Shown here: positions 12,001-55,093 of the stretch, piece after piece
Position numbering within the stretch: the stretch's first letter is position 1
Layout of the letters: the number at the start of each line of letters is the position of its first letter
Virus record (IMG/VR): IMGVR_UViG_3300021400_000136
Coordinates: 16,152 to 80,151 of that record
Source of the DNA: a virus
Lineage: Duplodnaviria; Caudoviricetes
DNA length: 64,000 nucleotides
Reading direction: 5' to 3' (one strand)
Notes under the pieces: generated by a model
The model's input: the letters and a program-made list of their open reading frames with translations, nothing else
Told to the model about the DNA's origin: nothing
Database searches by the model: none
Position numbers and translations under genes: made by a program

Positions 12001-15000
12001 AGTTCTACGTCTCAGAATGGGCAGAAGACGGAGAGGTTAAAACAAGGGGAATAGCTAAGTACGCAAAGGATCACGGATATGACGGCGCTATAATTAGAAA
12101 CTGTGTTGACATCGGAGAGTATAAGCGTTCCTACGACTACGAAGCGTATTCTACTCCGGCAACTCTGGTGCTATGCTTTGAACAGAATCAGTTCAAAGAC
12201 TATAGAAATACAGAACCTACTGATGGCATTGATTTAAGATTTTCTATTGCCGATACCTATGACGCCTTTGGAGATGAAATCGATGTCCAAGATGGAACAG
12301 TTCTGAATGCAACCAAGTCCACACTTTCTGATCAGCTTTTCTATTCTGAAGACGGTAATACCGCCTACTACCAGCTCGACTCTGGTGAGACGGTGGTTAT
12401 GGAGAACGTAGGGGAAGACTCTCCCGAAGCACGATACATTAATTTCTTGGAGGCAACGAACAATGCCAACAGTACTGACACAACCACAGCAAAACCTTAT
12501 ACGATACCTCCTGCAACTCGGTATGAATCTGATGGATATAATATCGGTGAATCGAATGATGGCCTACGACGAGGAGCGGAAGAAGTTCCTTCGGCGAATC
12601 AAGAAGGAACACTTCGACGTGCAGGAAGTAATGGAGAACGCAATGAACAGAGTCAACCGCAGAGTGAAGAGGCGGAAGGTGTAAGGTTCTCTGCCACTAT
12701 CCCGACAGCTGACGACCCGAACCATCCGACAGCCTTCGTCAACCAGAACGGCGATGTGGTTACCACTGCTGAAGCTTACCCGTACGGATCTATGGAGCGC
12801 ATGATCATCGAGGCATGGAACACTGGTGACTTCAGATCTATTGAGGACCAGATTAACGAAATGCTCGATATCGGCCACGCCAGAGATGAAGTCTTCGATA
12901 TGATGGAAGAGATCGCTGCACAGCCTCTGGGGCTTACTCCTCAGGAGCGCGACGCAGTCTACAGACAGATCGAAGAGATGCGTGTACGGTATGGAACGAT
13001 GCCGTCGGCGAATGTTACGAAGCGGGATGTACATTTCCCAGTAGCTACAGACGACGACACCAAACTGATGAAGGGCGCACAGACCCATGCACAGGAGGCC
13101 GAGACCGAGTGGCTGTCTGAAGAGATCATGGCAGAAGCACTCCGTAACGAGATTCTCTCCTATGTCCCTGCATCTAATAAGTCCTCCATCGAAAAAGCGG
13201 AAGACTATATCAAAGCGAAGAAAGGTAATTACGAAGAGATCGCAAGAGATGTCCACGCTTGGCTGGCATCCGGAGAGCGTGTCAAACCGTGGCAGGTAGC
13301 AGTCGGCGAACTCCTTCTTAAAGAGGTAGAAACCGAAGGCAGAGCAGACCTCGCTATGTCTCTCGTAATAGACCTTACTCTTATGGCCCATGAAACCGGA
13401 CAGGCTCTGCAAGCTTTCGCTATTCTCCGGAAGGCGACTCCGCGTGGACAGCTCTACTATCTGCAAGGTGTTGTTAACCAACTGAATAAAAAGTATGAGA
13501 AACAGATCCGAGAAGGGAAGATGGGCAAGATCGAACTTCCGCAGGATGCTGCGCAGAGAATGCTCGCATGCGAAACACGGCAGGAACTGAATGACGTAGT
13601 CGAGGAAATAAAGGACGAGATCGCGAAAAAGATTCCTGTATCATGGGCTGATCGCTGGAACGCATGGAGATACCTGGCTATGTTGGGTAACCCCAGAACA
13701 CACGTTCGTAACATGCTTGGTAACGGCCTGTTCCGTCCCGCCGTATTTATCAAAGACGTTATCTCCAGAAGACTGGAGGATATAGCAAGTAGGCACGGCA
13801 AGCTGGAAGGTAGGTCTCGTATAGCAGGAGCGAATCTGAAATCCGATACGGAATGGATGCGCTATGCCAACGAAGACTATGAGGAAATGTACAAGATCCT
13901 TGTAGGCGAGGCAACCGGTAATAAGTATGCTGATGCCAACGACATCCTCTCCAGACGAGATCTCTGGGGTAAAGACAAGTGGCTCGGTGGTAAGTTCCTT
14001 GCATGGGCAGACCGTAAGAACAGCGACTTACTTACTAAGGAAGATGCTACATTCCTAAAGAAGTACTACACCAGAGCGTTTGCAGAATTCCTGCAGGCGA
14101 GGGGTGTAACGGAAGAAGATCTCCGTGATAAGAAGTTTGGCGCTACCAAGGCAAATAAGAAGCTCATCAACGAAGCAAGAGCATGGGCAACAATCGAGGC
14201 TCAGAGGAATACCTACCGTGATGCCAATGCAGTAGCTTCCTGGCTTAACTCCATGAAGCGTCAGGGTACTGTTCCTTACACAATCCTCGAAGGTGTTGTT
14301 CCGTTCACCAAGACCCCGATGAACATCCTTGCCCGTGGTATTGAGTACTCTCCGATTGGACTGATTCAGAGCGTACGGCAACTGGCTAAAGATCTTCGTA
14401 GTCCGAGCGAGATGACCACCAGCCAAGCGCTGGATAGACTCGCTGCCGGTATGACCGGTACGATGATCGTTGGCCTCGGCCTGTTCCTCACTGCTATGGG
14501 CTGGCTCCGTGGAAGTGGTGGAGATGATGATAAGAAGAAAGAGTTCGAAGAGCTCATGGGTCATCAGGCATGGTCTCTTGAACTGTTTGGCTACAGCTAC
14601 ACCATCGACTGGATGGCACCGGCTGCACTGCCACTCTTCATTGGCTCCGCTATCTACGATATGCTGGCGACAGAAAGGGAAGAGGAGCTCGGCTTCGAAG
14701 ATATCGTCAAGGCACTGCTTGGTATAGCGGATCCTCTCAGCCAGTTGTCCATGCTGGATGGTATCTCTACTATGCTCTCCAACCTGGCGGATGCACAGGG
14801 GACGGAACAATTCTCCGTATTACTCTGGACTGCACTGACAAGCTATGTTGGACAGGGTATGCCTACACTCCTTGGGCAGGTAGCTAGAACATTCGATCCG
14901 GATAGACGGTCAACGTATATCCAGCCGGGTAGCAAAAACCCGATGCTGCAGCGGTTTATCCAGTCCTCCATACAGGCTAAGATCCCGGGTTGGGAGAACC

Positions 15001-17177
15001 AGAAGATGCGGTATGTGGATAACTGGGGTAGAACAGACTCAGCCAATACACCTTGGGAGAAATTCCTAAAGGGCGTTGAGAACTTCCTTTCACCGGGTTA
15101 TCTGAACAAGATCGAGACCTCCGCTGTTGAGGACGAGCTGATGAGGCTGTACGAAGCAACCGGAGATAAGAACATTCTGCCAGACAGAATGGGTAAGTAC
15201 TTCCAGGTTGACGGAGAACGGAAGAACCTCACAGCAGATGAGTACGAGCAATTGCTCACGGAAAAAGGACAGATGCACTATAACCTTCTGAACGAGGTTA
15301 TGTCCTCTGAGTATTACGCTTCTCTGACTGATGAACAAAAGGCAAAGCTGCTCCTCAACGCTGGAGAATTCTCAAAGAACTACGGCAAGCAGATGGTAGA
15401 TCCAGAGTTCGATATGGACAGCCACTGGATGGATGTAGCAAGGGCAATAGGCCCCGCCGATTATCTGATGATCCAGGATGATCTTTCCCACAACAGGACT
15501 CATGACCAGCTGTTCACCTACCTTGTATCCAATCCGAATCTCAGCTACGATCAGATCGCATATCTCATCGCTGATGAATATGCCGCTCCGGACAAGATTC
15601 CCAGTGTCGGTAACAACGGCTACAACTATGAGATCACTGAGGAAGATGAGGCAGCGATGCAGGAGATCTTCAAAGATCTGGTACATACGCGCCTTGCTGA
15701 ATTAGAGACTGATCCCAGGTATGTTGCAGGCGATGAGTACAAGAAGGGCGATATGATGGACAACCTCTATAATGAAATTAAAGAGGATGTCAAAACAATA
15801 TACGCCGAACAGCTCGATGCATCCGACCGTCCGATGGTACTTGGAAAGGCATCTTCTGTAGGAACCGAGTCCTTTAATATGGTACTCGATCTTACACGTA
15901 ACGAGATCGAAGGAGAGTACAGGGATGACATCGCAGCACAGGCTGGATGGTTAAGCCAGAAGTACCGGGCTGACTCCCAGATCAGTAACCCCGATAGAGA
16001 CGGCTGGGATATCAAGCTCAGTGCTGATGACAAGGACGAGCTGTATGATGAATTCCAGAAAGCTTGGGAGCCTGCATACAGAAAGATGCTTACTGAAGAT
16101 CCTGAGTTCCGCAACGCCACAAGCCGAGCATATCAGGATAAGATGATAGCATCCTTGTTCAATGAAGTTTCCCAGCAGGTAGAAGATGCATACGCTTCTA
16201 AACTGTACAAGTCCGGTAAGGCTGATGAAGTCATCGGCGATCCGAAGGGGACGGCAAAGAAAGACTGGCTGAAGAACTATGAGATTGCCAACGAAGCCTA
16301 CACCAATCCTAAGGATCAGGCAGCGTGGTTAGCAAAGAGATTTACCGGTGCTACCACTTTGGACAACCCCGACAGACCTGGGTACAATATCAAGACGAGC
16401 GATGCACAGCAGGCTCAACTTGCTCAGATCGAACAGGATAGATTCACTGCCGAATATGAAGCAATGAAGAAAGATCCGAAGTTCAAGAGCATGACACCGG
16501 AAGAGCAGGCTATCCAGACATACCAGCTGGCGCAGAACATCATGGATGTCGAAGAGGCCAAATACTCCAGATATCTGCTGGATAGAGGCGCAAAGATCGA
16601 ACAGGCAATCGATACTCAGTGCACGAATTCTGAATACTTCAATATGGTATTCTCAGAAGATCTCACTGATAGCGAACGGTACGACCTGATCGAACAACGC
16701 TATGACAGATATGTTGGTAAGAGTATTCTCAATAACTCCCTCGACTACCTCCAGCAGCACCAACGTGTCGGGTACTACATGGACTACGTACGTGAGAACA
16801 TGTATAAAGTCGCTGGACTTACCGGAGCAGAGGAAGCAGAAGCTTATATCAAGAAGATCCATGAACCGGCGATGAAGGCATCCGGAAATGCGATCAAGGC
16901 AGACTATAATTTAGCCAAGACCACGGCGGAGGCAGATGACGCGGCAAAGATAGCAGCCGGATATAACTACGGTATGCATCTCGGAACGGATCTGAATACT
17001 GTGGCGCCTAACACTACACCGGCGGAGGCTTCGGTAAGACCGAGGAACGGATATGTTATACCTCCTGCGGCTACAGAGAATACGCCAGAAACAAAACAAA
17101 GAACCAACTCTGGACTCGTGATCCCGACAGCTAACGAAGCTGTACAGGACGCATTCAAGTACAGAAGGTTCTGGTAA
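3..17177 (+). CDS. Giant polyvalent virion-associated protein (at least 5,724 aa, 5'-truncated by the window edge); contains an HExxH zincin, duplicated unknown domains, LPD3-like domains, ParB-like and ART-like domains, and a conserved internal-virion-type C-terminal region
   Basis: ORF track 102..17177; the same frame is open from position 3 (EESYDKRQFK...), so the true start lies upstream. Motifs: HEYMH (6087-6101), GHEGRHR (10773-10793), YHGT (11169-11180), and C-terminal WRYLAMLGNPRTHVRN / PFTKTPMNI / YTIDWMAP blocks typical of large phage polyvalent proteins. Confidence 0.9.
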   Translation, partial: EESYDKRQFKAPPIPIFSTEATREEQRLADLQIMRQAIQGARDAAQYKNDEIMFGRKYIGQDNTIAAWDAAEAALEANAPTADSTPEEKAAYNHERRYIQERIDACEYKAFVDEYADVSDSDIRQELFEMRFGNGETTTEDSADTNDTAHNLLTAKSAYDAAEEAFNEIAETARPTSAEYLDAYQAMKEAEAAYAEALQLAKDESKLDVGEIFDFSAFADILSGAPEENELSAEEQKRAEYLQRLLQDREISAIQEEIKSYEKDYPDGTAMRHWAEDIELDVEKKEAALLDAQTEAGKLDAEAYQYATVDAHSTENHTPEEAAQKAQEAKDAHNRALIAEQELAEAKGKLALVQALNQTSIRSEADYAEQVAKGKEMAGDIAQYKEAIDTAMDVGLDRKPAVDALVTQFGLTQEDAEKYVDMYFTLDEKERAVLFPNVDGVEEEEQGWLGKWWDKVTRSPYLGEKEVGKFTDEELNDFYYHLAKEGASAAAQYAMGVNNAYRNEYNDLAKERFMQLQNYRAGHNGKFQTAVEAAMMPVGNFALNLTALPEAISNFIQAEKLGMSVAPTDPTNSQLAEWAQESSSRQVTAMLPNFKPAEFLYNTYNSIVNSALSLATFSALGSALGLTDDIVIGGKGALQAFVSAATDLEFFGSAAASRYRELLEQGVDPQKAGWASVYSGLAEAMFEHFSIENLYHAKGVADWHNALDWAWHTACSAGVEGSEELFTNWANRLGDALYLKEDNPFNDSVDAYIAQGFEEDQALRFAMHDLLKEDALSFLGGAISGGVNAGSSSMMEWQIDKNKLADFRASQGKNFNIDLPNGKKASQELGTYLWNHEFIRPGDEHLFNEGQRNTVEEIKDLAWKASEGKASDEEIGRLQYLTAQFDSKVLDDFALANKDWYGRVEPMRLVQVSQEALNKLLGPENAQKYLEAVRANPHAKVENDFSLGLQQAVPNMGSNEASEVAGFLERIFTGSDRTTPEDIAKVLDSELLSSPEAQMYLWNYLKDKVPTDTPAIEVAAPAEPSGLTPSAEWAGQNVKREPSPIKPASQMETDSGTEAADREPTPIPSAEQAAENEKSREEAEAKAREEIQNPFIPIMQSIGMDPNITSENVGEALKNLLTTTWERAKEAAYQNQILKNGLSDTNRKLNDMQHEAAEQQTRDRLNRAPKGIKTDALAQYRDDSDSITFGNNTTTRKEFVEAYMKGYDPFNDKEIKGPKDEKAANRAFDRILLNSTTKDGLPLEGVKASMKNYDLSLRKAIVSDTKKGTGEPKDLERNGEPKAQEPASGKLNVQTPTDNSADMKEGTATGTEVTRNGEPDQTEPTDSKLNVQNPTDDSADMKDGTGTGTEVTRKGEPEQTEPTGGKLNVQTPADTSSDTTTGQTSVDGSELSRTEKPAEETPVEDQTTEEVAPDKAQQFLDYLQVMMQQTGEMTDEEFNALFGGATDTILDALVGREPANDFERRVIDAATREMDRRTSEDQTMAQQDEAPASAETSDFKTDDNLFATNGKEDKSWRSWDDTINNPDSNDDEIITRAEFVERAMNGVGKIKPMTFAEANDLFDDLAYIDEHDSDTNTDYGKKGSNPMYSAGGASTGASVATGSELNMKPVTYSASDVPGLVELGRTSYSPSNRTISSSDRSWGDAISNEYGKTITRAEFVAAAMSGQNLYSGTRMPTISGVAANDLFDDIVDNKIAYGGYADRTNNGYSITDATVTADMLNAPGFVGAMANTLAILEAEMRSASDTSNQKLAPFMKRVDLARKQLEGLLGRSVSDAATEVTDVRNQINTRLAEINNRLEVLMSRSDQNKIGYLVDLKEMSQLRAERQKLMTQTFRLGQAEAKYTKALDRLNSARNRMYSNDYYSYIGGKLYGGPAGTRGLTGRNNDVAQSRSGGSVTGSAGGSAQSVQGNAGTVSEQTFKTVEEILSAGGLTLRGKVLFDSAGMSPQEIANAKIPLSLRNSILHAMRNGVGRVVLTDGDLLNGKSYINEKGKEVEQTVGGFYDTLMDGGTERSVIVLHKDSFTEKNIQHEYMHHMLRKMSERQKRGFLTSAIRTMFGSRQDLFEELFDSYKIDYAIAHGRVIDENGRVDEDLAYIIYEEMVADFYAGLNRFKTPEMAEAMGPLVREMRVSLYNYCERLGLEDYARSKWINREYTPKEGTLDIRRTGRATAPYEQQFKERTESDNELAKGEHRFNPERNAYEARFSLANTMGGIYDTYGVDINTAEDSRLDELARQIDEEYEAAQKEQADIRSTWTDKDYADLTPDEYWARYHEWNEQSGIDAVKRRVDTLGSYSRAISKEKAWRAIDPEALIQKAKDIYGTTDDFRKSGYILPDGTMLDMSQGANKRTLFHHETAQEVLFALKYPASDAIEKFVGRGGAIRIDVDSDGIDIPQSGMTPAQYETLRDFLSDFIATEDYDRAAFYVSTFGKNLGTSERFNPSNTTQILNAIRQYYDTGSFPKQSTTQQFYGRYSLANTEAVSLDELQTARDEMLDLRQQLRDRKADVDEWSRRIMAGEAEIDDYNKWLSDSGYNRLYMQEREASKRYNDLNRAYDEQQESANAEAEQNAIEQSGLSEADYFGKEAVKVFGYTPYFYDAGYITPNGRMLNFSGEKGKHYGSRGQDHRSIGQIFAVTSGTEAMNRFISYGNIRIMAEAPGLDISANIEPTAEQYSRIRDFARSARDEDYFSIDITGEDGRVIDTIEYESVNPAKIVNDLKNYYRTGEVPQQSVTAQFHASFSLVGVSDDGMEVYETSQAVKDMTREERMDAFEARMANEFRGRTARFERNGHIYYAKFDSTGVSKNIYGDDKSDQSGWRAKIRAGADGDIFDLIENSTYNGSSAEKSGKKGKAHNKTQRWDYFIKKVQIDGIVYDLTANVRRKNDDFVYNIQLNRDINTKPATSYSPLPKAGFNQDIAGTDNVSQNGSTVKYSKQEHPNARYSLCAFEDGTKFVNVETDQEQFDGLTDKEKRDLAEKIIKERFSGRIIGETNKAFVNSQTAREYAYPSKRLTDSGVLDAKMRASTELDNLLEAGSNFRTAPDGADGHTHPDAVGGFTYFDTLFKVGEEFYKGLVNIKNNAKGALLVDITKIENVTKDTYNSYGKNPKFVFLNDVSNDIKSQNNPNVKNQNESEPSYSIAVSDPDTLDFLNDQLENGDVVYTYKSFLEYEDENGDPYLIAPMAGVQKDETGKKSQSHALRPGVWEESVGNPNSKSLGKKVNDKTGEVSWTYGLEKSDVDGSVVPAAYNPYQHSSDVVLNDQFSIAYKRPNLVTYMCAIPKSELTSGYHFGVTDPEKATRSDGDIVTAKDAVGMHDWKSGSLASQLENTQRHVYLSRWLMPVRKLSNIEVAQQYKEILDREAPGLGVPFNVVPSGLLSALQEVGVPIDLTGTGLSEANYRKYLSEVNAAREEAGLEPFPYSYQTKAERDAAKKERKNASKRFSISGDNLDNLDDLLMDYDLSDLGRIVSDTFGSTFETEEDEMPPELPYEQQRPRRSVENPTHNPTAYLKPETLNAWLSGRGFADTGNPNYAQAYIGWMNPEDFLYLTTSTYDYEDNRVRAEGYYGDLEDISSRAQRGREADTIHLSIDSETGRVYGHEGRHRMAYLQSLGVERVPVLFFDSGNKYDKEIMEDYTLSGEQRPGKKVTLDNPLIPLSNGYRGLVENEFVKGEEQDNDLQTARFSITDDSNADGYTLSDIDSTGRELTDEQYYYFRNSKVVDEDGHLIPLYHGTNAFGFTEIDFDKADDGISFFLTDSPEVAGSYTRNNTVRSLFDKQRQRRAIDVSKLSDEDLASLFSQVSIPYFESATVSKFEDVLRTFTGPLNAAKMRYASFFEEELLPSREDLGLTETDLAFYDALKGNSTSVESIIDLLDRADKFYYSLRKKIWDTDESYIWDEMRSLQPQLQTAASQAQRFLADHNSAGVSLEDNVFITDPGSKNFYTREQIERLTGRRQEEEELGRNSAGIYKGYANLTNPFIVDANGAEWNQIPVDQEVVDYLKALNSPEFYVSEWAEDGEVKTRGIAKYAKDHGYDGAIIRNCVDIGEYKRSYDYEAYSTPATLVLCFEQNQFKDYRNTEPTDGIDLRFSIADTYDAFGDEIDVQDGTVLNATKSTLSDQLFYSEDGNTAYYQLDSGETVVMENVGEDSPEARYINFLEATNNANSTDTTTAKPYTIPPATRYESDGYNIGESNDGLRRGAEEVPSANQEGTLRRAGSNGERNEQSQPQSEEAEGVRFSATIPTADDPNHPTAFVNQNGDVVTTAEAYPYGSMERMIIEAWNTGDFRSIEDQINEMLDIGHARDEVFDMMEEIAAQPLGLTPQERDAVYRQIEEMRVRYGTMPSANVTKRDVHFPVATDDDTKLMKGAQTHAQEAETEWLSEEIMAEALRNEILSYVPASNKSSIEKAEDYIKAKKGNYEEIARDVHAWLASGERVKPWQVAVGELLLKEVETEGRADLAMSLVIDLTLMAHETGQALQAFAILRKATPRGQLYYLQGVVNQLNKKYEKQIREGKMGKIELPQDAAQRMLACETRQELNDVVEEIKDEIAKKIPVSWADRWNAWRYLAMLGNPRTHVRNMLGNGLFRPAVFIKDVISRRLEDIASRHGKLEGRSRIAGANLKSDTEWMRYANEDYEEMYKILVGEATGNKYADANDILSRRDLWGKDKWLGGKFLAWADRKNSDLLTKEDATFLKKYYTRAFAEFLQARGVTEEDLRDKKFGATKANKKLINEARAWATIEAQRNTYRDANAVASWLNSMKRQGTVPYTILEGVVPFTKTPMNILARGIEYSPIGLIQSVRQLAKDLRSPSEMTTSQALDRLAAGMTGTMIVGLGLFLTAMGWLRGSGGDDDKKKEFEELMGHQAWSLELFGYSYTIDWMAPAALPLFIGSAIYDMLATEREEELGFEDIVKALLGIADPLSQLSMLDGISTMLSNLADAQGTEQFSVLLWTALTSYVGQGMPTLLGQVARTFDPDRRSTYIQPGSKNPMLQRFIQSSIQAKIPGWENQKMRYVDNWGRTDSANTPWEKFLKGVENFLSPGYLNKIETSAVEDELMRLYEATGDKNILPDRMGKYFQVDGERKNLTADEYEQLLTEKGQMHYNLLNEVMSSEYYASLTDEQKAKLLLNAGEFSKNYGKQMVDPEFDMDSHWMDVARAIGPADYLMIQDDLSHNRTHDQLFTYLVSNPNLSYDQIAYLIADEYAAPDKIPSVGNNGYNYEITEEDEAAMQEIFKDLVHTRLAELETDPRYVAGDEYKKGDMMDNLYNEIKEDVKTIYAEQLDASDRPMVLGKASSVGTESFNMVLDLTRNEIEGEYRDDIAAQAGWLSQKYRADSQISNPDRDGWDIKLSADDKDELYDEFQKAWEPAYRKMLTEDPEFRNATSRAYQDKMIASLFNEVSQQVEDAYASKLYKSGKADEVIGDPKGTAKKDWLKNYEIANEAYTNPKDQAAWLAKRFTGATTLDNPDRPGYNIKTSDAQQAQLAQIEQDRFTAEYEAMKKDPKFKSMTPEEQAIQTYQLAQNIMDVEEAKYSRYLLDRGAKIEQAIDTQCTNSEYFNMVFSEDLTDSERYDLIEQRYDRYVGKSILNNSLDYLQQHQRVGYYMDYVRENMYKVAGLTGAEEAEAYIKKIHEPAMKASGNAIKADYNLAKTTAEADDAAKIAAGYNYGMHLGTDLNTVAPNTTPAEASVRPRNGYVIPPAATENTPETKQRTNSGLVIPTANEAVQDAFKYRRFW
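3828..4128 (+). repeat. In-frame 114-bp (38-aa) tandem repeat, about 2.6 copies, inside the giant gene
   Basis: AAGCTTAATG recurs at 3870, 3984 and 4098; protein unit approximately EVTRxGEPxQTEPTxxKLNVQxPTDxSADMKxGTxTGT. Confidence 0.9.
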
Positions 17178-35144: not shown

Positions 35145-35851
35145 GGCTCTAACCCTCTATTACATAAGCTGTTTGTTTTGTTTTTCATCTGGTCCTTTAG
35201 AGGTATCCAAGTACAATTCTCTGGGCAGTAATTTCCATAGACATTTAGGCGCTCAATTGTCAGTCCTTTACGATAACCGTTATTCAACGCCCACTCTCTG
35301 AAGGCCGGATAATCCAGCCACTCTTCGCATACCGTTATTCCTTTTGCACCGTACCATTTATAATCGCGGCTGTTTGAGTTCAAGCACCGCTGCTTCAATG
35401 TTCTATGAACGTTGTATAAGTCCTCTCCGCAGAAGCCGTGCTTGGTTGCTTTCTCTCTATTCACATCGGCCGATAAACATCCGCAGCTCTGCGTAGTTTC
35501 TTCGCGCAGCCCTCGGTAAGGAATCCATTTCTCTTTCCCGCAATCGCAATGACAAAAGCATCGAATGGATTTGCCCTTATATTCTTGGGATAAAACAGTA
35601 AGCCGACCTATCTTCTTCCCTACAAGGTTCTGTGCTTTAGCGTGTAGTTCGTCAATATGCAGACAGCCACAACTGCGAGTATCCCCGCTTAACAAATTTC
35701 CACTCGTAATAACTTTCTGATTTCCACAATCACACTGGCAAAGCCACCTAGCCTTTCCGGCTTTTGTGTTTTCAGCTGGAGCAATTACTACAAGCCTACC
35801 GAACCTTTGTCCCATTAAGTTCTTTCTGTTCCAAGCAGCCATATAAATCAA
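35141..35851 (-). CDS. Free-standing HNH-type homing endonuclease
   Basis: Two GxxFGRLxV...CxCDCG...SCGC zinc repeats plus C-terminal YGAKGITVCEEW...TIERLNVYGNYCPENCTW. Confidence 0.75.
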   Translation of the reverse strand: MIYMAAWNRKNLMGQRFGRLVVIAPAENTKAGKARWLCQCDCGNQKVITSGNLLSGDTRSCGCLHIDELHAKAQNLVGKKIGRLTVLSQEYKGKSIRCFCHCDCGKEKWIPYRGLREETTQSCGCLSADVNREKATKHGFCGEDLYNVHRTLKQRCLNSNSRDYKWYGAKGITVCEEWLDYPAFREWALNNGYRKGLTIERLNVYGNYCPENCTWIPLKDQMKNKTNSLCNRGLEP

Positions 35852-38184
35852 TCCTTTTTATAGAACATAGTTTCAAAACCATCGGCATTAAGCGGGAGGC
35901 CTTCCATCCACGGAGCGCCTTTGCACATCAACCGGATGGCTTCTTCCAAAGAGCCATGGTCAAAGGGATCTGTGATAATAACCTCATCATGTACAGTAGC
36001 CCGGACATCGTATCCGGCTTTGTCCAGATTGAAGAGTGCTTCCTTGAGGCAGTCTCTTGCGGTGGCCTGGATGAGATTTTCTGTCAGTTTCCCGCCGAAT
36101 GTCTCTGTACGCTCCCACTTACGTGTCGTCTGGTTCATACTCATGTAGGTCATCGACGGACGGCCCCATCGGTCCTGGCCCATAGCCGCTCCCCAATAGG
36201 CTATCCGTCTTCCAGATGGGAGAGTCATCCACATCACCCCGTCTTCCATGTCAAATCGGATGTGACCGACAGTGGAGATCGTAGGTCTACCTTTTTTAAT
36301 ACACCGGATGGCAGCGTCCTCTAAGGATTTCCATAGTGCGGTAATATGCGGTGAAGCTTCTCTCCACTTGGATACCAGATCGGACATTTCTTCTTCGGAC
36401 ATGCCCATGCGGTCTGCCCCAAAATTCTTCATCGCTCCTACGCCACCGCCGTATCCGCAATTGTGGACGAGCTTTCCAGATACAGTGTAACGATGGTTCG
36501 GTCCGGCATTTAAGATGTCATACACCTTTACTTTGTTCTCAAGACACCGAACTTCCGGACCACGAGCCGCTGGGTACTTACCATCTCGTAAAACCCAACC
36601 GCCTATTGCCGCCCAACCAAATGGGGCTGCCTCGTCTGTAGCAGTAAGAAATACTGGATGATCTGGCGTTGCCATTAATCCTTGATACGCAATAACGAAC
36701 TTCTCGCCTTGAAACACAACCCCATCATGGCTTACAAAGGACTCACCATCCCAGACTTTCATCTCGGTAGTAACATCTTGAATAGGAACGAGGCCATGAT
36801 CGGTAAGAACAAGCTGGTCTTCAGCTATACAAGCAAGTTCAATGATCTTACCCTTTGCTCTGAGTTCGCCGTTCACACCATGCTTCACAACGGGAACTTT
36901 AAATGCACGGCTGGCTGACGCGCAGTAGATATCCTCGCCATTGGCAAAAGCTTTGATCCGCCACTCCTCATTAGCTATCCAGGCGATAACTCTCGCTTCG
37001 ATAGCACTGAAGTCCGCCACAATCAATCGGCTATTCTCTTCCGGTATTATCATGGTACGGATCAATGCGCTCAACGCACTCTGGACTTTCGGATACATAC
37101 ATTCAAAGTCTTCCTCATCTCCGAGCATCGCCCACATCCGGGCATCATCCAGATCCGGAAGAGAGTCATGCGGTAGGTTCTGAAGCTGCACTAATCTTCC
37201 TGCCCACCGCCCAGTTGACGCTCCATAGAATTGGAATGTTCCGCGGACATGATTATCTTTACAGCACGAACGGAGGAAGGCCTCATACTTTTTATTACTA
37301 CTCTTGGAAAACTCTTCCCTTAATTTGAGGACTTCCTTTGTCTGGTCATCAGACAGGGAAGCGTACACATCAGCAATGGCTTTCTTATTTAAGGAAAGAA
37401 CTTCGATCCCTTCCTGCTCTTCCAACCAGGATTTAATTTGTGCGGTAGAGTTAGGATTCTCCAGTCCGGTCAGTTGTTTGCAATGTTCAATCAACTCCTC
37501 ACGATACTGGTTGCCAATCTTGATAGCGTTCTCGGCTAACCTCGGTTCGATGCGGACACCCTTGTCGTTCATCCGCTGATCGAGACACCAGAGCTTTTGT
37601 TCTGAGAAGTCCGGCCTCCATTTCAACAGACGCTGGCGGATTGTATTCTCCGTCTCGACATCTCGTCTGTTGTACTCGATGAATGTTGCCCACTTCTCTG
37701 GTGCATCCTCCGGTCGGTTCCGAGTTCTGCCACCATTAGTTTTAGTAGGACGGCATGGCTGACAGAAGTACCGAATAAGCTCTTTGCCTTCCTTCATCTT
37801 CGCCTTGTCTTCTGGAAGCTCCAGTGCTGCACCGACTCCGGCGAGGGAGAGGGGAAGACCACAGGACGCAGAGAGGATCATGGTGCAGCTCCATTGCTCC
37901 GGTTCACAGTACCGACCGAACCACTTAGTCAGACATGTCCTCTCAAAATTCGCATTGAACGCTGTCTTCTCGACAGCAGGATCATAAAGCCAGTCAACTA
38001 TCTCAGTAGGGATCTCCTCACCCTGGGCCAGATCGATTACTTCTACCGGGCCATAGTCCAGACTGTAGGCAAAGAGCAGGATCTCGAAGTCGTCGGATTC
38101 GGTGTAGCGATATACACCGCACTTACCAATGTCCACGGAGGAGTAGGTTTCGAGGTCCGCTGAAAGAGTATGTGGCTTATTCAT
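35848..38184 (-). CDS. polA: Family A DNA polymerase (phage type) containing a mini-intein
   Basis: Exonuclease DLETY; motif A IVADFSAIEAR; motif B KIIELA|CGYGGG split by the intein; motif C VHDEV. Confidence 0.93.
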   Translation of the reverse strand: MNKPHTLSADLETYSSVDIGKCGVYRYTESDDFEILLFAYSLDYGPVEVIDLAQGEEIPTEIVDWLYDPAVEKTAFNANFERTCLTKWFGRYCEPEQWSCTMILSASCGLPLSLAGVGAALELPEDKAKMKEGKELIRYFCQPCRPTKTNGGRTRNRPEDAPEKWATFIEYNRRDVETENTIRQRLLKWRPDFSEQKLWCLDQRMNDKGVRIEPRLAENAIKIGNQYREELIEHCKQLTGLENPNSTAQIKSWLEEQEGIEVLSLNKKAIADVYASLSDDQTKEVLKLREEFSKSSNKKYEAFLRSCCKDNHVRGTFQFYGASTGRWAGRLVQLQNLPHDSLPDLDDARMWAMLGDEEDFECMYPKVQSALSALIRTMIIPEENSRLIVADFSAIEARVIAWIANEEWRIKAFANGEDIYCASASRAFKVPVVKHGVNGELRAKGKIIELACIAEDQLVLTDHGLVPIQDVTTEMKVWDGESFVSHDGVVFQGEKFVIAYQGLMATPDHPVFLTATDEAAPFGWAAIGGWVLRDGKYPAARGPEVRCLENKVKVYDILNAGPNHRYTVSGKLVHNCGYGGGVGAMKNFGADRMGMSEEEMSDLVSKWREASPHITALWKSLEDAAIRCIKKGRPTISTVGHIRFDMEDGVMWMTLPSGRRIAYWGAAMGQDRWGRPSMTYMSMNQTTRKWERTETFGGKLTENLIQATARDCLKEALFNLDKAGYDVRATVHDEVIITDPFDHGSLEEAIRLMCKGAPWMEGLPLNADGFETMFYKKD
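36460..36831 (-). mobile_element. Mini-intein (124 aa, no endonuclease) in polymerase motif B
   Basis: Starts CIAEDQLVLTDHGLVPIQDV (block A), contains TPDHPV (block B), ends VYDI...YTVSGKLVHN followed by Cys +1. Confidence 0.92.
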
Positions 38185-38959: not shown

Positions 38960-39024
38960 AGCCACCGGCTGGACTCGAACCAGCGACAACCATTACGGGC
39001 TCTAGCCATCTGAGCTACGGTGGC
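38960..39024 (-). ncRNA. tRNA-like RNA with a truncated anticodon arm
   Basis: Perfect acceptor GCCACCG/CGGTGGC, D-arm GCTC/GAGC and T-arm GCTGG-TTCGAGT-CCAGC, but only CCGTAATGGTTGTC between the D- and T-arms. Confidence 0.7.
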
Positions 39025-39041
39025 ATAGTGAATTTTAATAG

Positions 39042-39128
39042 GACCAGGGGTGGGATTCGAACCCACATGGATATTCTCCAACGGTATGCACACTACCGAT
39101 ACGCGCCTACCAATTGCGCCGCCCTGGC
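39042..39128 (-). tRNA. Atypical class II tRNA with an elongated anticodon arm (loop GT-GTG-CA)
   Basis: GCCAGGG/CCCTGGT acceptor, GCGC D-stem, Leu-like variable arm GGA-GAATA-TCC, canonical T-arm; anticodon region about 4-5 nt longer than in the adjacent tRNA-Leu. Confidence 0.7.
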
Positions 39129-39138
39129 TTGTGCGATC

Positions 39139-39212
39139 TGGTACTCCGGGAAAGAATTGAACTTTCGTTAAGGCCTTATAAGGACCCTACTCTGCCATTG
39201 AGTTACCGGAGC
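39139..39212 (-). tRNA. tRNA-Ile(TAT) with encoded CCA
   Basis: GCTCCGG/CCGGAGT-A-CCA; anticodon arm GGGTC-CTTATAA-GGCCT. Confidence 0.85.
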
Positions 39213-39405
39213 GGGTGTGTGGGATTTCCACCCACGCGGCTTGGTTTCAACCTGCGACCCTACTGGTGGGCCAGCTGCCATGAGGTAGATGAAAGGAGGT
39301 GGGTGTTCGCGACCACCGACACAGGTAGCATAGCCAGTTGCTGCATGTGCCTAAAACGCATATCAGAAATCCGTTCGTGCCATTGGACTCCGCGACAAGT
39401 CCGGC
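39213..39405 (-). ncRNA. Unidentified structured RNA inside the tRNA cluster
   Basis: Several hairpins, a T-arm-like GTGGG-TGGAAAT-CCCAC at the 3' end, and an internal CACCTCCTTTC; boundaries inferred from the flanking tRNAs. Confidence 0.5.
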
Positions 39406-39418
39406 ATAGATACGTAAG

Positions 39419-39492
39419 CAGAGCCGACAGGATTCGAACCTGTGAATACGTGGTTCAAAGCCACGCGTGATAGACCGCTACACCACGGCTCT
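39419..39492 (-). tRNA. tRNA-Gln(TTG)
   Basis: AGAGCCG/CGGCTCT-G; CGTGG-CTTTGAA-CCACG; ACAGG-TTCGAAT-CCTGT. Confidence 0.9.
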
Positions 39493-39527
39493 ATATACGG
39501 ATGGGGGAAGTACCCCATCCATGGAAC

Positions 39528-39773
39528 TTAGATATCGATGACTACATTCTCGAACTTCTTATATGCGTCGAGGAAAGCTATATGCTTATCTCCGCTATAG
39601 GTCAGCTCGTAGTACATACCATCGTGGAGAGTAGTACTCAGCAAGTACTTACAGTTCTGTAGGACCTTACACTTCCACACAATGAAGACATCGTAGTGCG
39701 GAGCGGGATCTGATGCATCGAGATGTTTGCCCACATACTCCCGGACGATCAGCTTTGCTTGAACATCGTTCAT
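39528..39773 (-). CDS. DUF6275-like conserved phage protein
   Basis: VFIVWKCKVLQNCKYLLST...DGMYYELTY.G.K...LDAYKKFEN. Confidence 0.6.
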   Translation of the reverse strand: MNDVQAKLIVREYVGKHLDASDPAPHYDVFIVWKCKVLQNCKYLLSTTLHDGMYYELTYSGDKHIAFLDAYKKFENVVIDI

Positions 39774-40342
39774 CCAAGATCACCAAAGTCTTCGTCGGAG
39801 GATGCGCCACCACCGGAGAGTCGCTCGCCATCTCTGGTCTTGATGCAGTTGCCAAGGCTCACGGCCACACCTTTGTTCCCGTTCTTATTGAACGGATAGA
39901 ACTCCAGAGTGACACCACCGTAGCACCCAGCGTAGAAATCTTCCGGTCCATTGGCATCGTACCGGATACCTTCCTCCAGTACCTGCACCCCTGGCTTGCG
40001 TCTGTTGGATGCGTTGAGGAACATCATACCTTCATAGGCAGGATCGTCTTCACGTTCCTCGCCATCGCGAAGGGGCTTCTTCAGTGTGGCAGGGATCTTG
40101 CCGTTCCAGTACTTCTCCGCACCCAGCTTTGCCGCAGCAGCGATGCCGTTGTTGACAAGCTTCAGTGCCTCTTCGTTATCCTTCGGGATCAGAATAGATA
40201 CCGAGTACTTTTCATACTCACTGCCTTCTGGCTTGTATGCTTCGAAGACATGCGGGAAAGAGAAGCGGACCTCGCCGATTCGAATAGCTGTACCAGATTC
40301 ATTTCTTTTCATGTTAAGATTCATGTTCATTACCTCATACAA
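39770..40342 (-). CDS. DUF2815 single-stranded DNA-binding protein
   Basis: VRFSFPHVFE, KYSVSILIPK, PLRDGEE, FYAGCYG, GVAVSLGNCIKTRDGERLSG and an acidic tail. Confidence 0.9.
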   Translation of the reverse strand: MYEVMNMNLNMKRNESGTAIRIGEVRFSFPHVFEAYKPEGSEYEKYSVSILIPKDNEEALKLVNNGIAAAAKLGAEKYWNGKIPATLKKPLRDGEEREDDPAYEGMMFLNASNRRKPGVQVLEEGIRYDANGPEDFYAGCYGGVTLEFYPFNKNGNKGVAVSLGNCIKTRDGERLSGGGASSDEDFGDLG

Positions 40343-40362: not shown

Positions 40363-41550
40363 CTAATTGACGTTATTGTTTGACTCGCCGAGATCCGCAA
40401 AGTCAAGTTCAACTGGGCGGTACTCTTCACGCTTGTCGGACACCGGGACAAGAGTGAGAGCACCTTTACCCTGGTAGACATAGCCCCCAACCAGAGCATC
40501 GAATGCTGAGTGCTTTAATGCCTTTTCTAATTCAGCCGGAGACTTGAGCTTTGGCTCAGTAAAGATCTGTTCCTTTGAATACCCCGCCCGCGAAAGCTGG
40601 TCGATAACTGTGGACTCATCCTTCCACACTCGACCCGGGCGTCTCCCCTCAACTAACTTGTACCCCGGAATGTGTTCACCGGCGAGAGCTCTGTTATAGA
40701 CGTAAGCTCTTACATCCTTTATCCATTGCTCCGCTGATTCCAGATAGGGGAGCATCTTCTCTAGCCTCTCGTCTGGGATTACGTCAGGCGAGTCAAACAT
40801 ATTTTGAATGACGGACAGGGAGTTCAGAACATTCTCCCTACAGATTGCTTTTACGTTGCAGAATTGGCAATGCTCACCGCTCTTAAATTCTCCTTGTCCA
40901 GTCCATGCCAATTGTGCAGCGGGTCTGATTACCTCGTCCGCCCAGCTGAGAAGGTCTTCTATCGGAAGTATTTCCTCCGTTACCGAGTCAAGCCTCGGCT
41001 GAATTATCATTTCCTTTACGTGCTTAATATCGTAGATCTCCCGGAACGCTGCGTAAGCACCTAACGCATAGATCCTAGCCTGATAGTTTCCAACCGCAGA
41101 TACGGGGACACCTTTGCCGTATTTTAGATCTTGTACGATCAGTCCACCTTCGAACACGATCACCGCGTCCGATGTGCCAAAGCATTCCGGTATCCACTCA
41201 GACATATCCAGCCGCTGCTCTACAAAAAGTTGGGCGGTCGGATCAATCTTTCGTACGGCATACAGTTCCGACATGACCACATCAACGTAGTCATCTGTCG
41301 CACGATCCATGTCGCGAGGTATATCACCAAGCGACTTGACCTGTTCAGTGTAGCTGAAGTCATTGATTTCTCCATTCTCTCTACGGAGTTTTAACTCCGC
41401 CAGACTATGGGCCAACGTACCTTCTTCCGCATATTCACTCGACTTATCACCGAATAGTTCTCTGTACTTCTGGTTCAGCCTCCCGGATGGCGGACATGTA
41501 ATCCACCGCTTCGCCGCACTCGGTGATAAAGCCGCATGCATAGTAGGCAT
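40363..41550 (-). CDS. DUF2800 PD-(D/E)XK (Cas4-like) nuclease
   Basis: HAALSPSAAKRWITCPPS, EGTLAH, FGTSD, DLKYGKG, HCQFC. Confidence 0.88.
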   Translation of the reverse strand: MPTMHAALSPSAAKRWITCPPSGRLNQKYRELFGDKSSEYAEEGTLAHSLAELKLRRENGEINDFSYTEQVKSLGDIPRDMDRATDDYVDVVMSELYAVRKIDPTAQLFVEQRLDMSEWIPECFGTSDAVIVFEGGLIVQDLKYGKGVPVSAVGNYQARIYALGAYAAFREIYDIKHVKEMIIQPRLDSVTEEILPIEDLLSWADEVIRPAAQLAWTGQGEFKSGEHCQFCNVKAICRENVLNSLSVIQNMFDSPDVIPDERLEKMLPYLESAEQWIKDVRAYVYNRALAGEHIPGYKLVEGRRPGRVWKDESTVIDQLSRAGYSKEQIFTEPKLKSPAELEKALKHSAFDALVGGYVYQGKGALTLVPVSDKREEYRPVELDFADLGESNNNVN

Positions 41551-44661: not shown

Positions 44662-44873
44662 ATCCTGGCCTCTGCCCCTTCTCGCTGCCCTTCTGCATAT
44701 CAAAGTCTGTTGAGGTAGAGTCAGAAAGGAATGTATATGAAGGCAACATATTTAAAAAGGAAAGAAGTGATGCTCAGGAGGTAGGGTTAAATGATCGACC
44801 GGCCAAAGTCAATCTCGCTCTATTGAGCAACGAACTACGAAGGGCAGGGAGAAAAAGCAGAGGCCTGTAGGAT
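44662..44873 (-). ncRNA. Putative structured ncRNA of about 210 nt with a long closing stem and pyrimidine-rich anti-SD loops
   Basis: Arms 44662-44693 and 44839-44873 form about 31 bp; G-U pairs are possible only on the - strand; no ORF. Confidence 0.65.
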
Positions 44874-44903
44874 CAAACGTAGGAGGAAAGGAATAGAAGA
44901 AAC

Positions 44904-52800: not shown

Positions 52801-55093
52801 TGCAGGGTTTCCATTGTTCTCATTCTTATATCCTCCATAATTACATTTTATTTTGAGACCGGACAGGATGTAGAGTCCTGCCCACGCACCATGCCTGACT
52901 CCTGTTTATACTCGCATGGTCGAGTGTGGTATCAATCCTCTTCTATGCAACCATCGTCTTCTGTAGATGACTCATCCCAATCGATGTCCATGTCTTCAGC
53001 GAGTTCTTCTGCTTCTTCAAGGGATTCGGCTTGTACTGTGATTGTGCCAAGCATGCTGTACAGGAATGTGTATGTTTTCATTGTTCAATCCTCCTCTGTC
53101 TCCGGCAGGTATCCAAATCTCTGCCCATCTGATATTGTTTGGTAGATTACAGCCCATCCGGCTTCAATCATTTTCTCTTGCAGGTGCTCCCAATTGATTG
53201 CTCCGAGTACGCTCTGTATCCGTTCATCTGTTGCTTTGATTCCGTCGTAGCTTTCCAGTGCTTCCGCAATATCTGCTTCTGTCCAGTAGGTTTCTGCATA
53301 TCTTTCCATTGTTCAATCCTCCTTAACAGCTTTGTTATAGATCTCAACAGCTTTCATTAATGCAGTGCCGCAGTACAGCCAATTGTCTTCGCCCTTCCAC
53401 ACATGGTACATCGGCTGACGTCCATGCATGTCGTCGTTTGGTTTGTCCTTACTGATAAACAGTGCCGTGTCTCCGTGTTCTTCTAGTAACCACAATTCTT
53501 TTTCATTAGGGCGGAAGGACTCTGCCCATCTTTCACGCATGGTCTTCTTTGCCATTGTTATATCCTCCTGTTAGATGTAGTTCTTTACGACACGTTCTTT
53601 GTTGTCGCTGTCGTAGCGCGTAATGTAGAGGTATTCTATATCCTGCGGCCTATGGTTCCTGTAGATGTCGCCCGCAATGAATACAGCTTGATCTATGTTG
53701 TGACATGCCTGCCGTACCTCTTTGTATCCGTTCACATGTTTGAAGTGTACATATCTGAGATTGCTTTCCATTATTCAATCCTCCTGTTATCGTGTGTATT
53801 CCACAAGATACTTTCCGTGTTCACGGAATCCGAAACGCTGGTGCTGTGCTGTTTCGTATGCTGTGTTGTATTGATCAATTTCATATACTCTCCATCTGTC
53901 TTCCGGAGAATCCCACTTGTACATTTCACGGTTCAGAATCTCCGCAATCTGTTCGGCCTTGACTCGTCTCTGTGGTACTCTATGCGCATGCTTTATGCTG
54001 AACATGAAGTCTTTTCCGAATCTTGTTTTAGATACGATAAGCATTATTCAATCCTCCTGTTATTATCCGTATATCCGGACGATTCTGTTTGTTAGTCTGG
54101 TAATTTCTCTTTTCGTTTTTGTCCAAGCTTCTTTCGACGTTCTTCCTTTATATACTTTCGTTTCTTGTGCTCCGGTGATGCAGTTTAGAAATTCCGTTTC
54201 GACTGCATAGTATCCATCTGCTGTTCTGTATTCTTTGTATTTCATTTCAAGAAGTTTTCTAAGCATTGCTTTATCCTCCATCATATTTCTTTTTCCATGA
54301 TGCTGCATTTGCCGTACCAAAAAGTATCTGTGTAATTCTCAAGTGCATATTCTGCATCAGCCCGTTTAGTGAATGGGCCGCAAAGTGTTTTTCCGTTTTC
54401 GCTTTTCACAAAGTATATTGTCATTGTGCTATCCCTCCATTAGATCTTTTTTCTTCCGGGCCAGCCATAAACTCTGGCGACAAAAGGCCGGATGCTTTTT
54501 GTGTACTTCTTTATATCGTTTTCAGATACTTCACCATAAACTAATTTATTCAGAAAAGTATCTTTCTGACTTTCGCTTATTCCCTTTCTCCATGTTCTGT
54601 AGCGATAATAGTTTGTGCCGTCATGATGTATTCCTGTATATCTCATGTCCTTATCATCGCAATACCATTCACAATAATCGCAATCGTTATATAGGCAGTC
54701 CTTAATGTTTCCTGACTTAATGATCTTGTATCCATTTCGTCTACCATTCCACAATCCTAAGTCTCCAATTACAATAATTTCGTCACCGACATTTACATTC
54801 AGATTGTACCGTTCATCATCAAGAGAGATAGCATTCTGCTCATCAATCCATTCATAGAGCTGATCATCAGTCTCACAGCTCGTCATTTCATTATCCAATA
54901 TGTCACAGCACTCTTGATAGTATTCACGCCAGGCGTCTATATTAATATCGATGTTTTGCCAGATTATCATTTTGTTTTCTTTCATTGTTATATCCTCCAT
55001 CATATTTCTTTCGGCATGCATGCCGTGTAATTGTTTCGTTTCTGCTGTGGCTTTTCTTCCTGTGCAGCGTATCCAATTAAAGACACGCTGCAC
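49799..55093 (-). other. Early-gene cluster of small, mostly acidic proteins: 49799..50041, 50109..50414, 50611..50901, 50903..51169, 51172..about 51440, 51438..51761, 51776..52078, 52094..52429, 52443..about 52823, 52932..53081, 53085..53309, 53313..53555, 53571..53771, 53787..54044, 54063..54266, 54440..54985
   Basis: ORF track plus manual translation; most starts are preceded by (A/T)GGAGGAT(A/T)N5ATG. Confidence 0.7.

Follow-up and report, generated by a model that had tools for sequence, protein, structure and literature searches.

The tRNA array of this phage very probably contains a real, structured RNA gene under selection, located at 39213-39417 on the minus strand, and the RNA is a new family when judged against Rfam, tRNA, and tmRNA models. 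It bears an exact copy of the 3' tail of 16S rRNA, and the reading we place first, with a probability of roughly 0.4, is that the RNA plausibly mimics this tail or masks ribosome-binding sites.

Genomic context of the element

The window, that is, the whole 64,000-nt stretch of DNA analysed here, corresponds to positions 16152-80151 of a complete 80,151-bp IMG/VR record with direct terminal repeats. A single ORF of 5,691 codons occupies 102-17177 on the plus strand. The tRNA array is surrounded by a minus-strand block of replication genes, and the main features of this region are as follows.

40363-41550, minus-strand replication block: exonuclease (DUF2800/PD-(D/E)XK)
39770-40342, minus-strand replication block: Gp2.5-like ssDNA-binding protein
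39528-39773, minus-strand replication block: DUF6275 protein, upstream of the array
39418-39492, minus strand: tRNA-Gln(UUG) (ARAGORN; Rfam 64.3 bits), CCA not encoded
39213-39417, minus strand: structured non-coding RNA gene, 205 nt (covariance model R1; homologues in the identical slot)
39139-39212, minus strand: tRNA-Ile(UAU) (ARAGORN; Rfam 62.2 bits)
39041-39128, minus strand: tRNA-like gene, 88 nt (tRNA-His(GUG) by ARAGORN; weak tRNA-Sec-like score of 22 bits by Rfam)
38960-39024, minus strand: tRNA without an anticodon arm (Rfam tRNA 42.7 bits; no ARAGORN call)
35848-38184, minus-strand block: family A DNA polymerase, with two small ORFs between the array and the polymerase

In the direction of transcription, the array thus reads tRNA-Gln, the 205-nt element, tRNA-Ile, the 88-nt tRNA-like gene, the tRNA without an anticodon arm, and tRNA-Leu(UAA). 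The sequence-only reading had described a stretch of about 190 nt between tRNA-Gln and tRNA-Ile; its position is confirmed by ARAGORN and Rfam, but its length is 205 nt. Since the RNA is flush with both tRNAs, cuts by RNase Z and RNase P would release it. Promoter-like sites and credible terminators were looked for on the minus strand inside the array and none were found, so that co-transcription followed by excision by tRNA-processing enzymes is the natural reading.

Distribution and conservation

Homologues were sought by pattern scans of IMG/VR and of JGI/ENA metagenomes, and six were found, 71-97% identical to the window element and present in one copy per genome.

L002: 81-kb phage, 97% identical
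L036 and L035 (clade B): 82% and 78% identical
G001/L029: 85-kb phage, 73% identical
L045 and L050: 74% and 71% identical

Together with the window, these seven sequences fall into three clades, and three come from complete genomes of 80-85 kb that have terminal repeats. All seven copies, which are about 205-222 nt long, lie directly after tRNA-Gln(UUG) and are followed by tRNA-Ile(UAU), with a degenerate tRNA-Ile-like copy intervening in G001 and L050. Model R1, built from the homologues, scores 208-238 bits and recovers exactly one copy per genome. Compared with the flanking coding DNA, identity in the element is 97% versus about 92% in L002, 78-82% versus 72-78% in clade B, and 73% versus 70-75% in G001; the element is therefore at least as conserved as its coding flanks, which argues for purifying selection.

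The distribution is narrow, the family having been found so far only in a small phage clade represented by these seven sequences. A distant search of GenBank phages for the element matched only tRNA, and a pattern scan of GTDB species genomes gave 6 chance matches and zero homologues, hence no prophage copy and no host clue. In related phages found via their SSB protein (40-52% identity), the tRNA array is absent near the SSB gene. Scanning IMG/VR with a 17-mer hairpin gave 12 matches, approximately the chance level by our own estimate of the collection size, and all but the L002 contig have the hairpin alone in common; the R1 scores of 24-26 bits obtained in L015, L018, and L022 are biased by selection on this 17-mer.

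The constant slot bears on an explanation in which the element acts only in cis, as a spacer that would govern how the tRNA precursor is processed, stabilised, or folded, be it by offering sites to RNases or by keeping neighbouring tRNAs apart, and is degraded once excised. The element invariably abuts the same two tRNAs, conservation extends to the 9 nt that follow tRNA-Gln, and other array spacers are conserved among the relatives as well. However, mere tRNA separators need neither ten helices nor invariant blocks of 13-15 nt, and the spacing at the tRNA-Ile/tRNA-'His' junction and at other junctions of the array is just 6-12 nt by ARAGORN, so processing does not call for a spacer of 205 nt. 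We regard a purely cis-acting spacer as unlikely.

Several other features were noted in and around the array. In the tRNA gene at 38960-39024 the acceptor, D, and T arms are all intact, and 9 nt stand where the Rfam model has 18 positions; L002 carries a complete tRNA-Thr(CGU) in the equivalent place, compared with which 9 nt of the anticodon arm are missing. The 88-nt tRNA-like gene at 39041-39128 is absent from L002, where an element of ~130 nt takes its place. A GC-rich hairpin, GGAUGGGG-UACUU-CCCCAUCC (39499-39520, minus strand), lies between the DUF6275 stop and tRNA-Gln; it is conserved, with compensatory changes, in L002, L045, and L050, has no U-tail, and may be a processing or stability signal heading the array. 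The degenerate tRNA-Ile copy that separates the element from the true tRNA-Ile(UAU) in G001 and L050 (L029:1452-1524 and L050:~425-499, both minus strand) has recognisable acceptor, D, and T arms and an altered anticodon arm, and is not called by ARAGORN.

The ~130-nt element is a second conserved non-tRNA element, present in the tRNA arrays of all relatives and absent from the window. Its copies are 80-90% identical, start right after a tRNA 3' end, and open with the hairpin GCCGGG-UCGCG-CCCGG, the loop of which resembles the P1 loop of the 205-nt RNA (described below); an Rfam match was looked for and none was found. The copies are located as follows.

L002:5201-5328 and 5406-5540: two paralogous copies
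L036:225-357: one copy
L035:7872-7999: one copy
L029:1085-1274: first ~60 nt only
L045:1-161: first ~60 nt only

Relation to known RNA families

The suggestion that the RNA belongs to no known family was borne out by an Rfam 15 search of 39213-39417 with permissive filters, which returned zero matches at E<=10, just as a search at gathering thresholds had. The set searched includes 6S, SRP, RNase P, ROOL, GOLLD, HEARO, ribozymes, and riboswitches, none of which matches at E<=10, and the L002 copy likewise has no match. Specific candidates were rejected on similar grounds. The Y RNA/YrlA family (RF02553) is absent from 39213-39417 at E<=10, its sole weak match lying elsewhere, at 38999-39067, and a gene for its TROVE partner was sought in G000, G001, and G002 and not found; tmRNA is not detected by ARAGORN, nor does any tmRNA family match at E<=10. 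A resemblance to the CR-I/CR-IV regions of RNase P, one to 16S h45 past the 11-mer shared with the 16S tail, and an origin as a captured rrn 16S-ITS-tRNA-Ile fragment were weighed by eye and discarded, given that no model matches and that any likeness stops at the 11-mer.

Degenerate tRNAs do exist in these arrays, both at 38960-39024 and as the tRNA-Ile-like copy of G001 and L050, and the element could accordingly be pictured as one or more decayed tRNA genes, or as neutral, functionless leftover DNA. Yet no tRNA model matches within it at E<=10, even partially, its conservation equals or exceeds that of the coding flanks, and it contains compensatory changes. A tRNA remnant is rejected as its identity, and we consider decay or neutrality very improbable.

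Secondary structure, strand, and coding status

Single-sequence folding reveals no excess stability (MFE -62.4 kcal/mol; z = +0.44 versus dinucleotide shuffles), so hairpins alone would mean little, and the support for the fold is comparative. RNAalifold, combined with our own reading of the three clades, gives about ten helices. In the seven-sequence alignment, a 46-pair model has 95.9% of cells paired, versus 36-48% with slid partners; 8 pairs are changed on both sides, and the covariation score was not equalled by any of 500 shuffles, although with just 7 related sequences these statistics are soft and indicative rather than proof. The several hairpins first read from the window alone thereby gain comparative support from seven homologous copies. 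Covariation is seen in P3, P3a, P6, and P9, whereas P1, P4, P7, and P8 are invariant and only predicted. The helices are arranged as follows, from the 5' end of the RNA.

39385-39402, minus strand: P1 hairpin, GGACUU/GAGUCC, with invariant loop GUCGCG; 100% paired, one-sided changes only (U-G to U-A)
39318-39352, minus strand: P3/P3a hairpin with a conserved 8-nt loop, ACUGGCUM; 4 + 2 pairs with both-sided changes
39298-39317, minus strand: P4 hairpin, GGUGG(G)/CCCACC, with CGCGA in the loop; invariant, one G-A mismatch in L050
39247-39292, minus strand: 3' domain with P5 (UCR/UGA), P6 (CCY/RGG), P7 (UGGC/GUCG), and the P8 hairpin (GCUGG/CCAGU)
39219-39235, minus strand: P9 terminal hairpin, GUGGG-UGGAAAU-CCCAC; U-A to C-G in L036 and L035

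At P1 there is an invariant block, GCCGGACUUGUCGCG, and the outer stems of P3/P3a, compared by eye, read GGCACA/UGUGUC, GGCAUA/UAUGUC, and AGCGAGA/UUUCGCU according to clade. The 3' domain carries a conserved UGAAAC, and its pairs are invariant except for one U-A/C-G pair in P6, which changes on both sides in 3 of the 7 copies. This pair is U-A in the window, L036, and L035 and C-G in L002 and clade C; since the window and L002 are sisters and differ here, at least two events are implied. The terminal hairpin P9 had been interpreted as a mimic of a T-arm. The sequence is present and its stem covaries, yet among the homologues the loop varies between UGGAAAU, UGAAACU, and an 18-nt form; being either 7 or 18 nt long, it is not a conserved T-loop. 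For the ACACCC tail at the 3' end of the RNA, a complementary 5' strand is absent (by eye).

The strand of the tRNAs is favoured by the pairing itself, as 44 G-U cells become A-C mismatches on the plus strand, where pairing drops to 83.4%. This preference for a minus-strand RNA also counts against a protein-coding explanation, which would invoke either the minus-strand ORF at 39260-39361 (33 aa) or a plus-strand gene with GAAAGGAGGTG as its Shine-Dalgarno sequence (SD). Both ORFs exist, and the plus strand does read as a perfect SD; however, 1- and 2-nt indels in conserved blocks shift the frame of the sole minus-strand ORF between clades and its ATG is not conserved, while on the plus strand the nearest start is a GTG just 3 nt after the SD, in a frame that runs antisense through tRNA-Gln. 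Coding was rejected and is the least probable of the explanations that we weighed.

Part of the RNA also invites comparison with published type I-C CRISPR repeats (PMC4645204, PMC9504256), and thereby an explanation in which the RNA is an anti-CRISPR that would trap Cas proteins by posing as a solitary repeat of a type I-C-like kind. GCGUGGGUGGAAAU agrees with the repeat tail of Roseburia hominis type I-C at 12 of 14 positions (PMC4645204), with GUCGC 16 nt upstream of it and another ..GG(U/A)UGAAAC also present. Against this, local alignment gives marginal p values (0.04-0.08 for the window; 0.007 for clade C, in a different register), the repeat comparison was picked after the fact, the covarying P6 pair conflicts with a repeat-like hairpin, and only 35 of the 205 nt would be explained. 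Moreover, among 401 sampled Lachnospiraceae genomes, no array with this tail was found, with at most 1 match per genome. We regard a repeat mimic as very improbable.

A copy of the 16S rRNA tail

The feature on which the preferred reading turns is an anti-Shine-Dalgarno (anti-SD) sequence, which is accompanied by a second, similar motif.

39291-39301, minus strand: CACCUCCUUUC, which matches the usual 16S 3' tail of bacteria exactly; AU and CUACCUCA come next
39281-39288, minus strand: CUACCUCA, second anti-SD-like motif

Both motifs, as well as GUGGG-UGGAAAU-CCCAC, lie where the sequence-only reading had placed them. That reading had tied the 11-mer to Bacillota; it is the 16S tail commonly found in bacteria, not one particular to that group. 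CACCUCCUUUC has a single occurrence in the window, both strands considered, and the number of chance copies expected for an 11-mer is about 0.03 per window (128 kb) and about 8e-5 per element. Among the homologues, CCCACCUCCUUUC is invariant in 6 of the 7 copies, L050 having one C-to-A change. For L045 and L050, which were retrieved with a pattern holding part of the anti-SD, conservation of this sequence is by construction; in all five copies retrieved without using it, by patterns from the terminal hairpin, the tRNA-Gln 3' end, or the P1 hairpin, the anti-SD is unchanged. The presence and conservation of the 16S-like 11-mer are thus confirmed, with its UCCUUUC 3' portion predicted to be unpaired. 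The second motif did not hold up: CUACCUCA is not conserved, being GCGCCCCA in L002 and GCCCC in clade C, and the CCU within it contributes a strand to helix P6.

The 5' half of the anti-SD forms the 3' strand of P4, both in the consensus fold and in each partition function, and the unpaired probability of CCACC is mostly <0.15 in 6 of the 7 copies. For UCCUUUC (39291-39297), the unpaired probability is 0.6-0.99 in 6 of the 7 and lower in L050, the copy with the P4 mismatch. The linker after UCCUUUC is the most variable part of the 3' half, with 3-nt indels. Because UCCUUUC is predicted to be unpaired and adjoins this hypervariable linker, its strict conservation is not explained by a local helix. 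Pairing of the anti-SD with the 5' strand of P9 was considered and rejected, as clade B (GCGGGUG) cannot form such pairs.

With respect to possible targets, AAGGAGG occurs 16 times on the gene strand versus 2 on the other, typically 6-9 nt before ATG, and such strong SDs in phage genes indicate that the host is very probably an SD-dependent bacterium. Elsewhere in the window, a pistol ribozyme match (52854-52925, minus strand; 52.5 bits, gathering threshold 34.5) is located within a series of small genes whose ribosome-binding sites, GGAGGAUAUAnnAAUG, are nearly identical. A pyrimidine-rich intergenic stretch at 44662-44893 (minus strand) contains a long inverted repeat, CCUCUGCUUUUUCUCCCUGCCCUUC ... 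GAAGGGCAGCGAGAAGGGGCAGAGG, which encloses several CCUCC / CUACCUC motifs; the stretch is 90% conserved in G002, represented by short pieces in G003, and not found in G001, and the CUACCUC motif shared between the two is not kept across the tRNA-array RNA family.

Proposed action and its main alternative

Mimicry of the 16S tail is ranked first on the grounds that an exact, invariant, and partly exposed copy of this tail lies in a selected RNA of an SD-using system. According to this proposal, host tRNA-processing enzymes would excise the RNA from the polycistron of the minus-strand replication-module operon, the 5' end being set by 3' processing of tRNA-Gln (RNase Z or exonucleases) and the 3' end by RNase P cleavage at the tRNA-Ile 5' end. 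P4 ends in CCCACC and is directly adjoined by the invariant UCCUUUC, predicted to be unpaired, the two spelling out the 16S rRNA 3' tail. The exposed pyrimidine tract could then pair in trans with purine-rich ribosome-binding sites of the GAAAGGAGG type, which are the rule in this phage and presumably in its host, much as the sequence-only reading had suggested, and this pairing would be extended if P4 opens. By competing with 30S subunits, it would damp or re-time translation initiation; in a minor, less likely form of the proposal, the RNA would titrate a factor that recognises the 16S tail. The Bacillota sRNA RsaE, proposed to block initiation via UCCC motifs, may be counted as a precedent (PMC9266662). 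A fuller version, in which a stable 16S-tail mimic from the tRNA array would either compete with 30S subunits for SDs or lure away a factor or toxin directed at the anti-SD, whether by recognition or by cleavage, is more doubtful.

Several considerations weigh against mimicry. With CCACC in a stem predicted to be stable, UCC would be the only free part of CCUCC, and UUUC may pair internally with a conserved GAAA, either in the UGAAAC of P5 or in the P9 loop; the possible internal partners of UCCUUUC (the GAAA of UGAAAC, and GAAA or GAAGG in the P9 loop) are all invariant. Additionally, an abundant anti-SD RNA would also strike the phage's own strong-SD genes. Finally, the blocks GCCGGACUUGUCGCG and CAUGGCAGCUGGC are as invariant as the anti-SD, a pattern more in keeping with a protein-binding RNA or one with a tertiary fold than with an sRNA that pairs by a simple seed.

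This last point leads to the main alternative, namely that the element is a compact, tertiary-folded RNA acting via a protein or another RNA, for instance as a scaffold, or by drawing off, as a decoy or sponge, some host nuclease, defence sensor, or RNA-binding protein, and that the match to the 16S tail is incidental or structural. Long invariant blocks in loops and junctions across the 3' two-thirds, the recurrence of GUCGCG-type motifs, the fourfold occurrence of UGGC, and the sequestration of CCACC in P4 are all consistent with such a fold, and a kissing contact is possible between the P1 loop UCGCG and the P4 loop CGCGA, which are complementary by eye. The odd tRNA-like genes in the neighbouring array would fit a counter-defence role of the array as a whole. 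However, an exact and invariant anti-SD 11-mer is improbable by chance, and the RNA matches no known protein-binding RNA family. Nor is there a linked partner protein: the DUF6275 gene upstream of the array is missing from clade B, searches of G000, G001, and G002 for a TROVE domain found none, and an S21 gene, likewise sought as a partner, was not found. We consider this alternative possible but doubtful.

Implications and comparison with known systems

The tRNA arrays of phages are commonly interpreted as devices for codon supply or against nucleases. The present array also holds at least one conserved non-tRNA structured RNA, and those of its relatives hold a second. If the 16S-tail copy is functional, as the mimicry proposal has it, the RNA would become the first known from a phage to target the SD/anti-SD interaction itself, and it would provide a compact tool for damping SD-led translation; a true mimic or decoy would represent an RNA-only route to take over or protect translation initiation. 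Should the copy prove non-functional, the family, with its multiple helices and long invariant loops, would still offer structural and functional studies a clean new object.

By context, the nearest system is that of the small stable RNAs rnaC and rnaD of phage T4 (species 1 and 2 RNAs; NC_000866 70908-71171), which, like this RNA, are non-tRNA genes inside a phage tRNA cluster and on the same strand. At 139 and 119 nt, the T4 RNAs occupy the end of their cluster, whereas this RNA measures 205 nt and lies between tRNAs; furthermore, rnaC ends in a canonical T-arm, CCGGG-UUCGAAU-CCCGG, and the 205-nt RNA is without one. We know of no anti-SD copy in rnaC or rnaD. A search of the T4 cluster (NC_000866 69500-73500) with model R1, filters off, gave a best score of 2.7 bits (E 0.67) and hence no homology in sequence or structure. 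The function of rnaC and rnaD is still not known (PMC9697503), and the present family revives a question about RNAs of this type that has gone unanswered for 50 years. A similar setting is that of ROOL and GOLLD, ornate structured RNAs borne by phages or prophages, often near tRNAs and with functions not known (PMC12286853); they are 3-4 times larger than the 205-nt RNA, and neither matches it in Rfam at E<=10. More broadly, structured RNAs without a name have been predicted by the thousand in IMG/VR, in a survey from 2023 (PMC10690425).

In terms of proposed action, the closest analogues would be sRNAs with C-rich seeds, such as RsaE, and the 3'ETS-leuZ sponge. The latter is a by-product of tRNA-operon processing in E. 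coli that acts in trans by base pairing. Its likeness to the 205-nt RNA, to which it is not homologous, would consist in an origin from a tRNA spacer; 3'ETS-leuZ is short, bacterial, and Hfq-dependent and sponges sRNAs, whereas the RNA described here is 205 nt long, phage-borne, and richly folded, with a candidate anti-SD seed. In Bacillota sRNAs of the RsaE/RoxS type, unpaired C/U-rich motifs (UCCC) pair with SDs and block initiation (PMC9266662). These sRNAs show no homology to the 205-nt RNA by Rfam and have their own promoters, terminators, and several short C-rich loops, in contrast to the phage RNA, which presents one 11-mer of the 16S tail, half of it in a stem.
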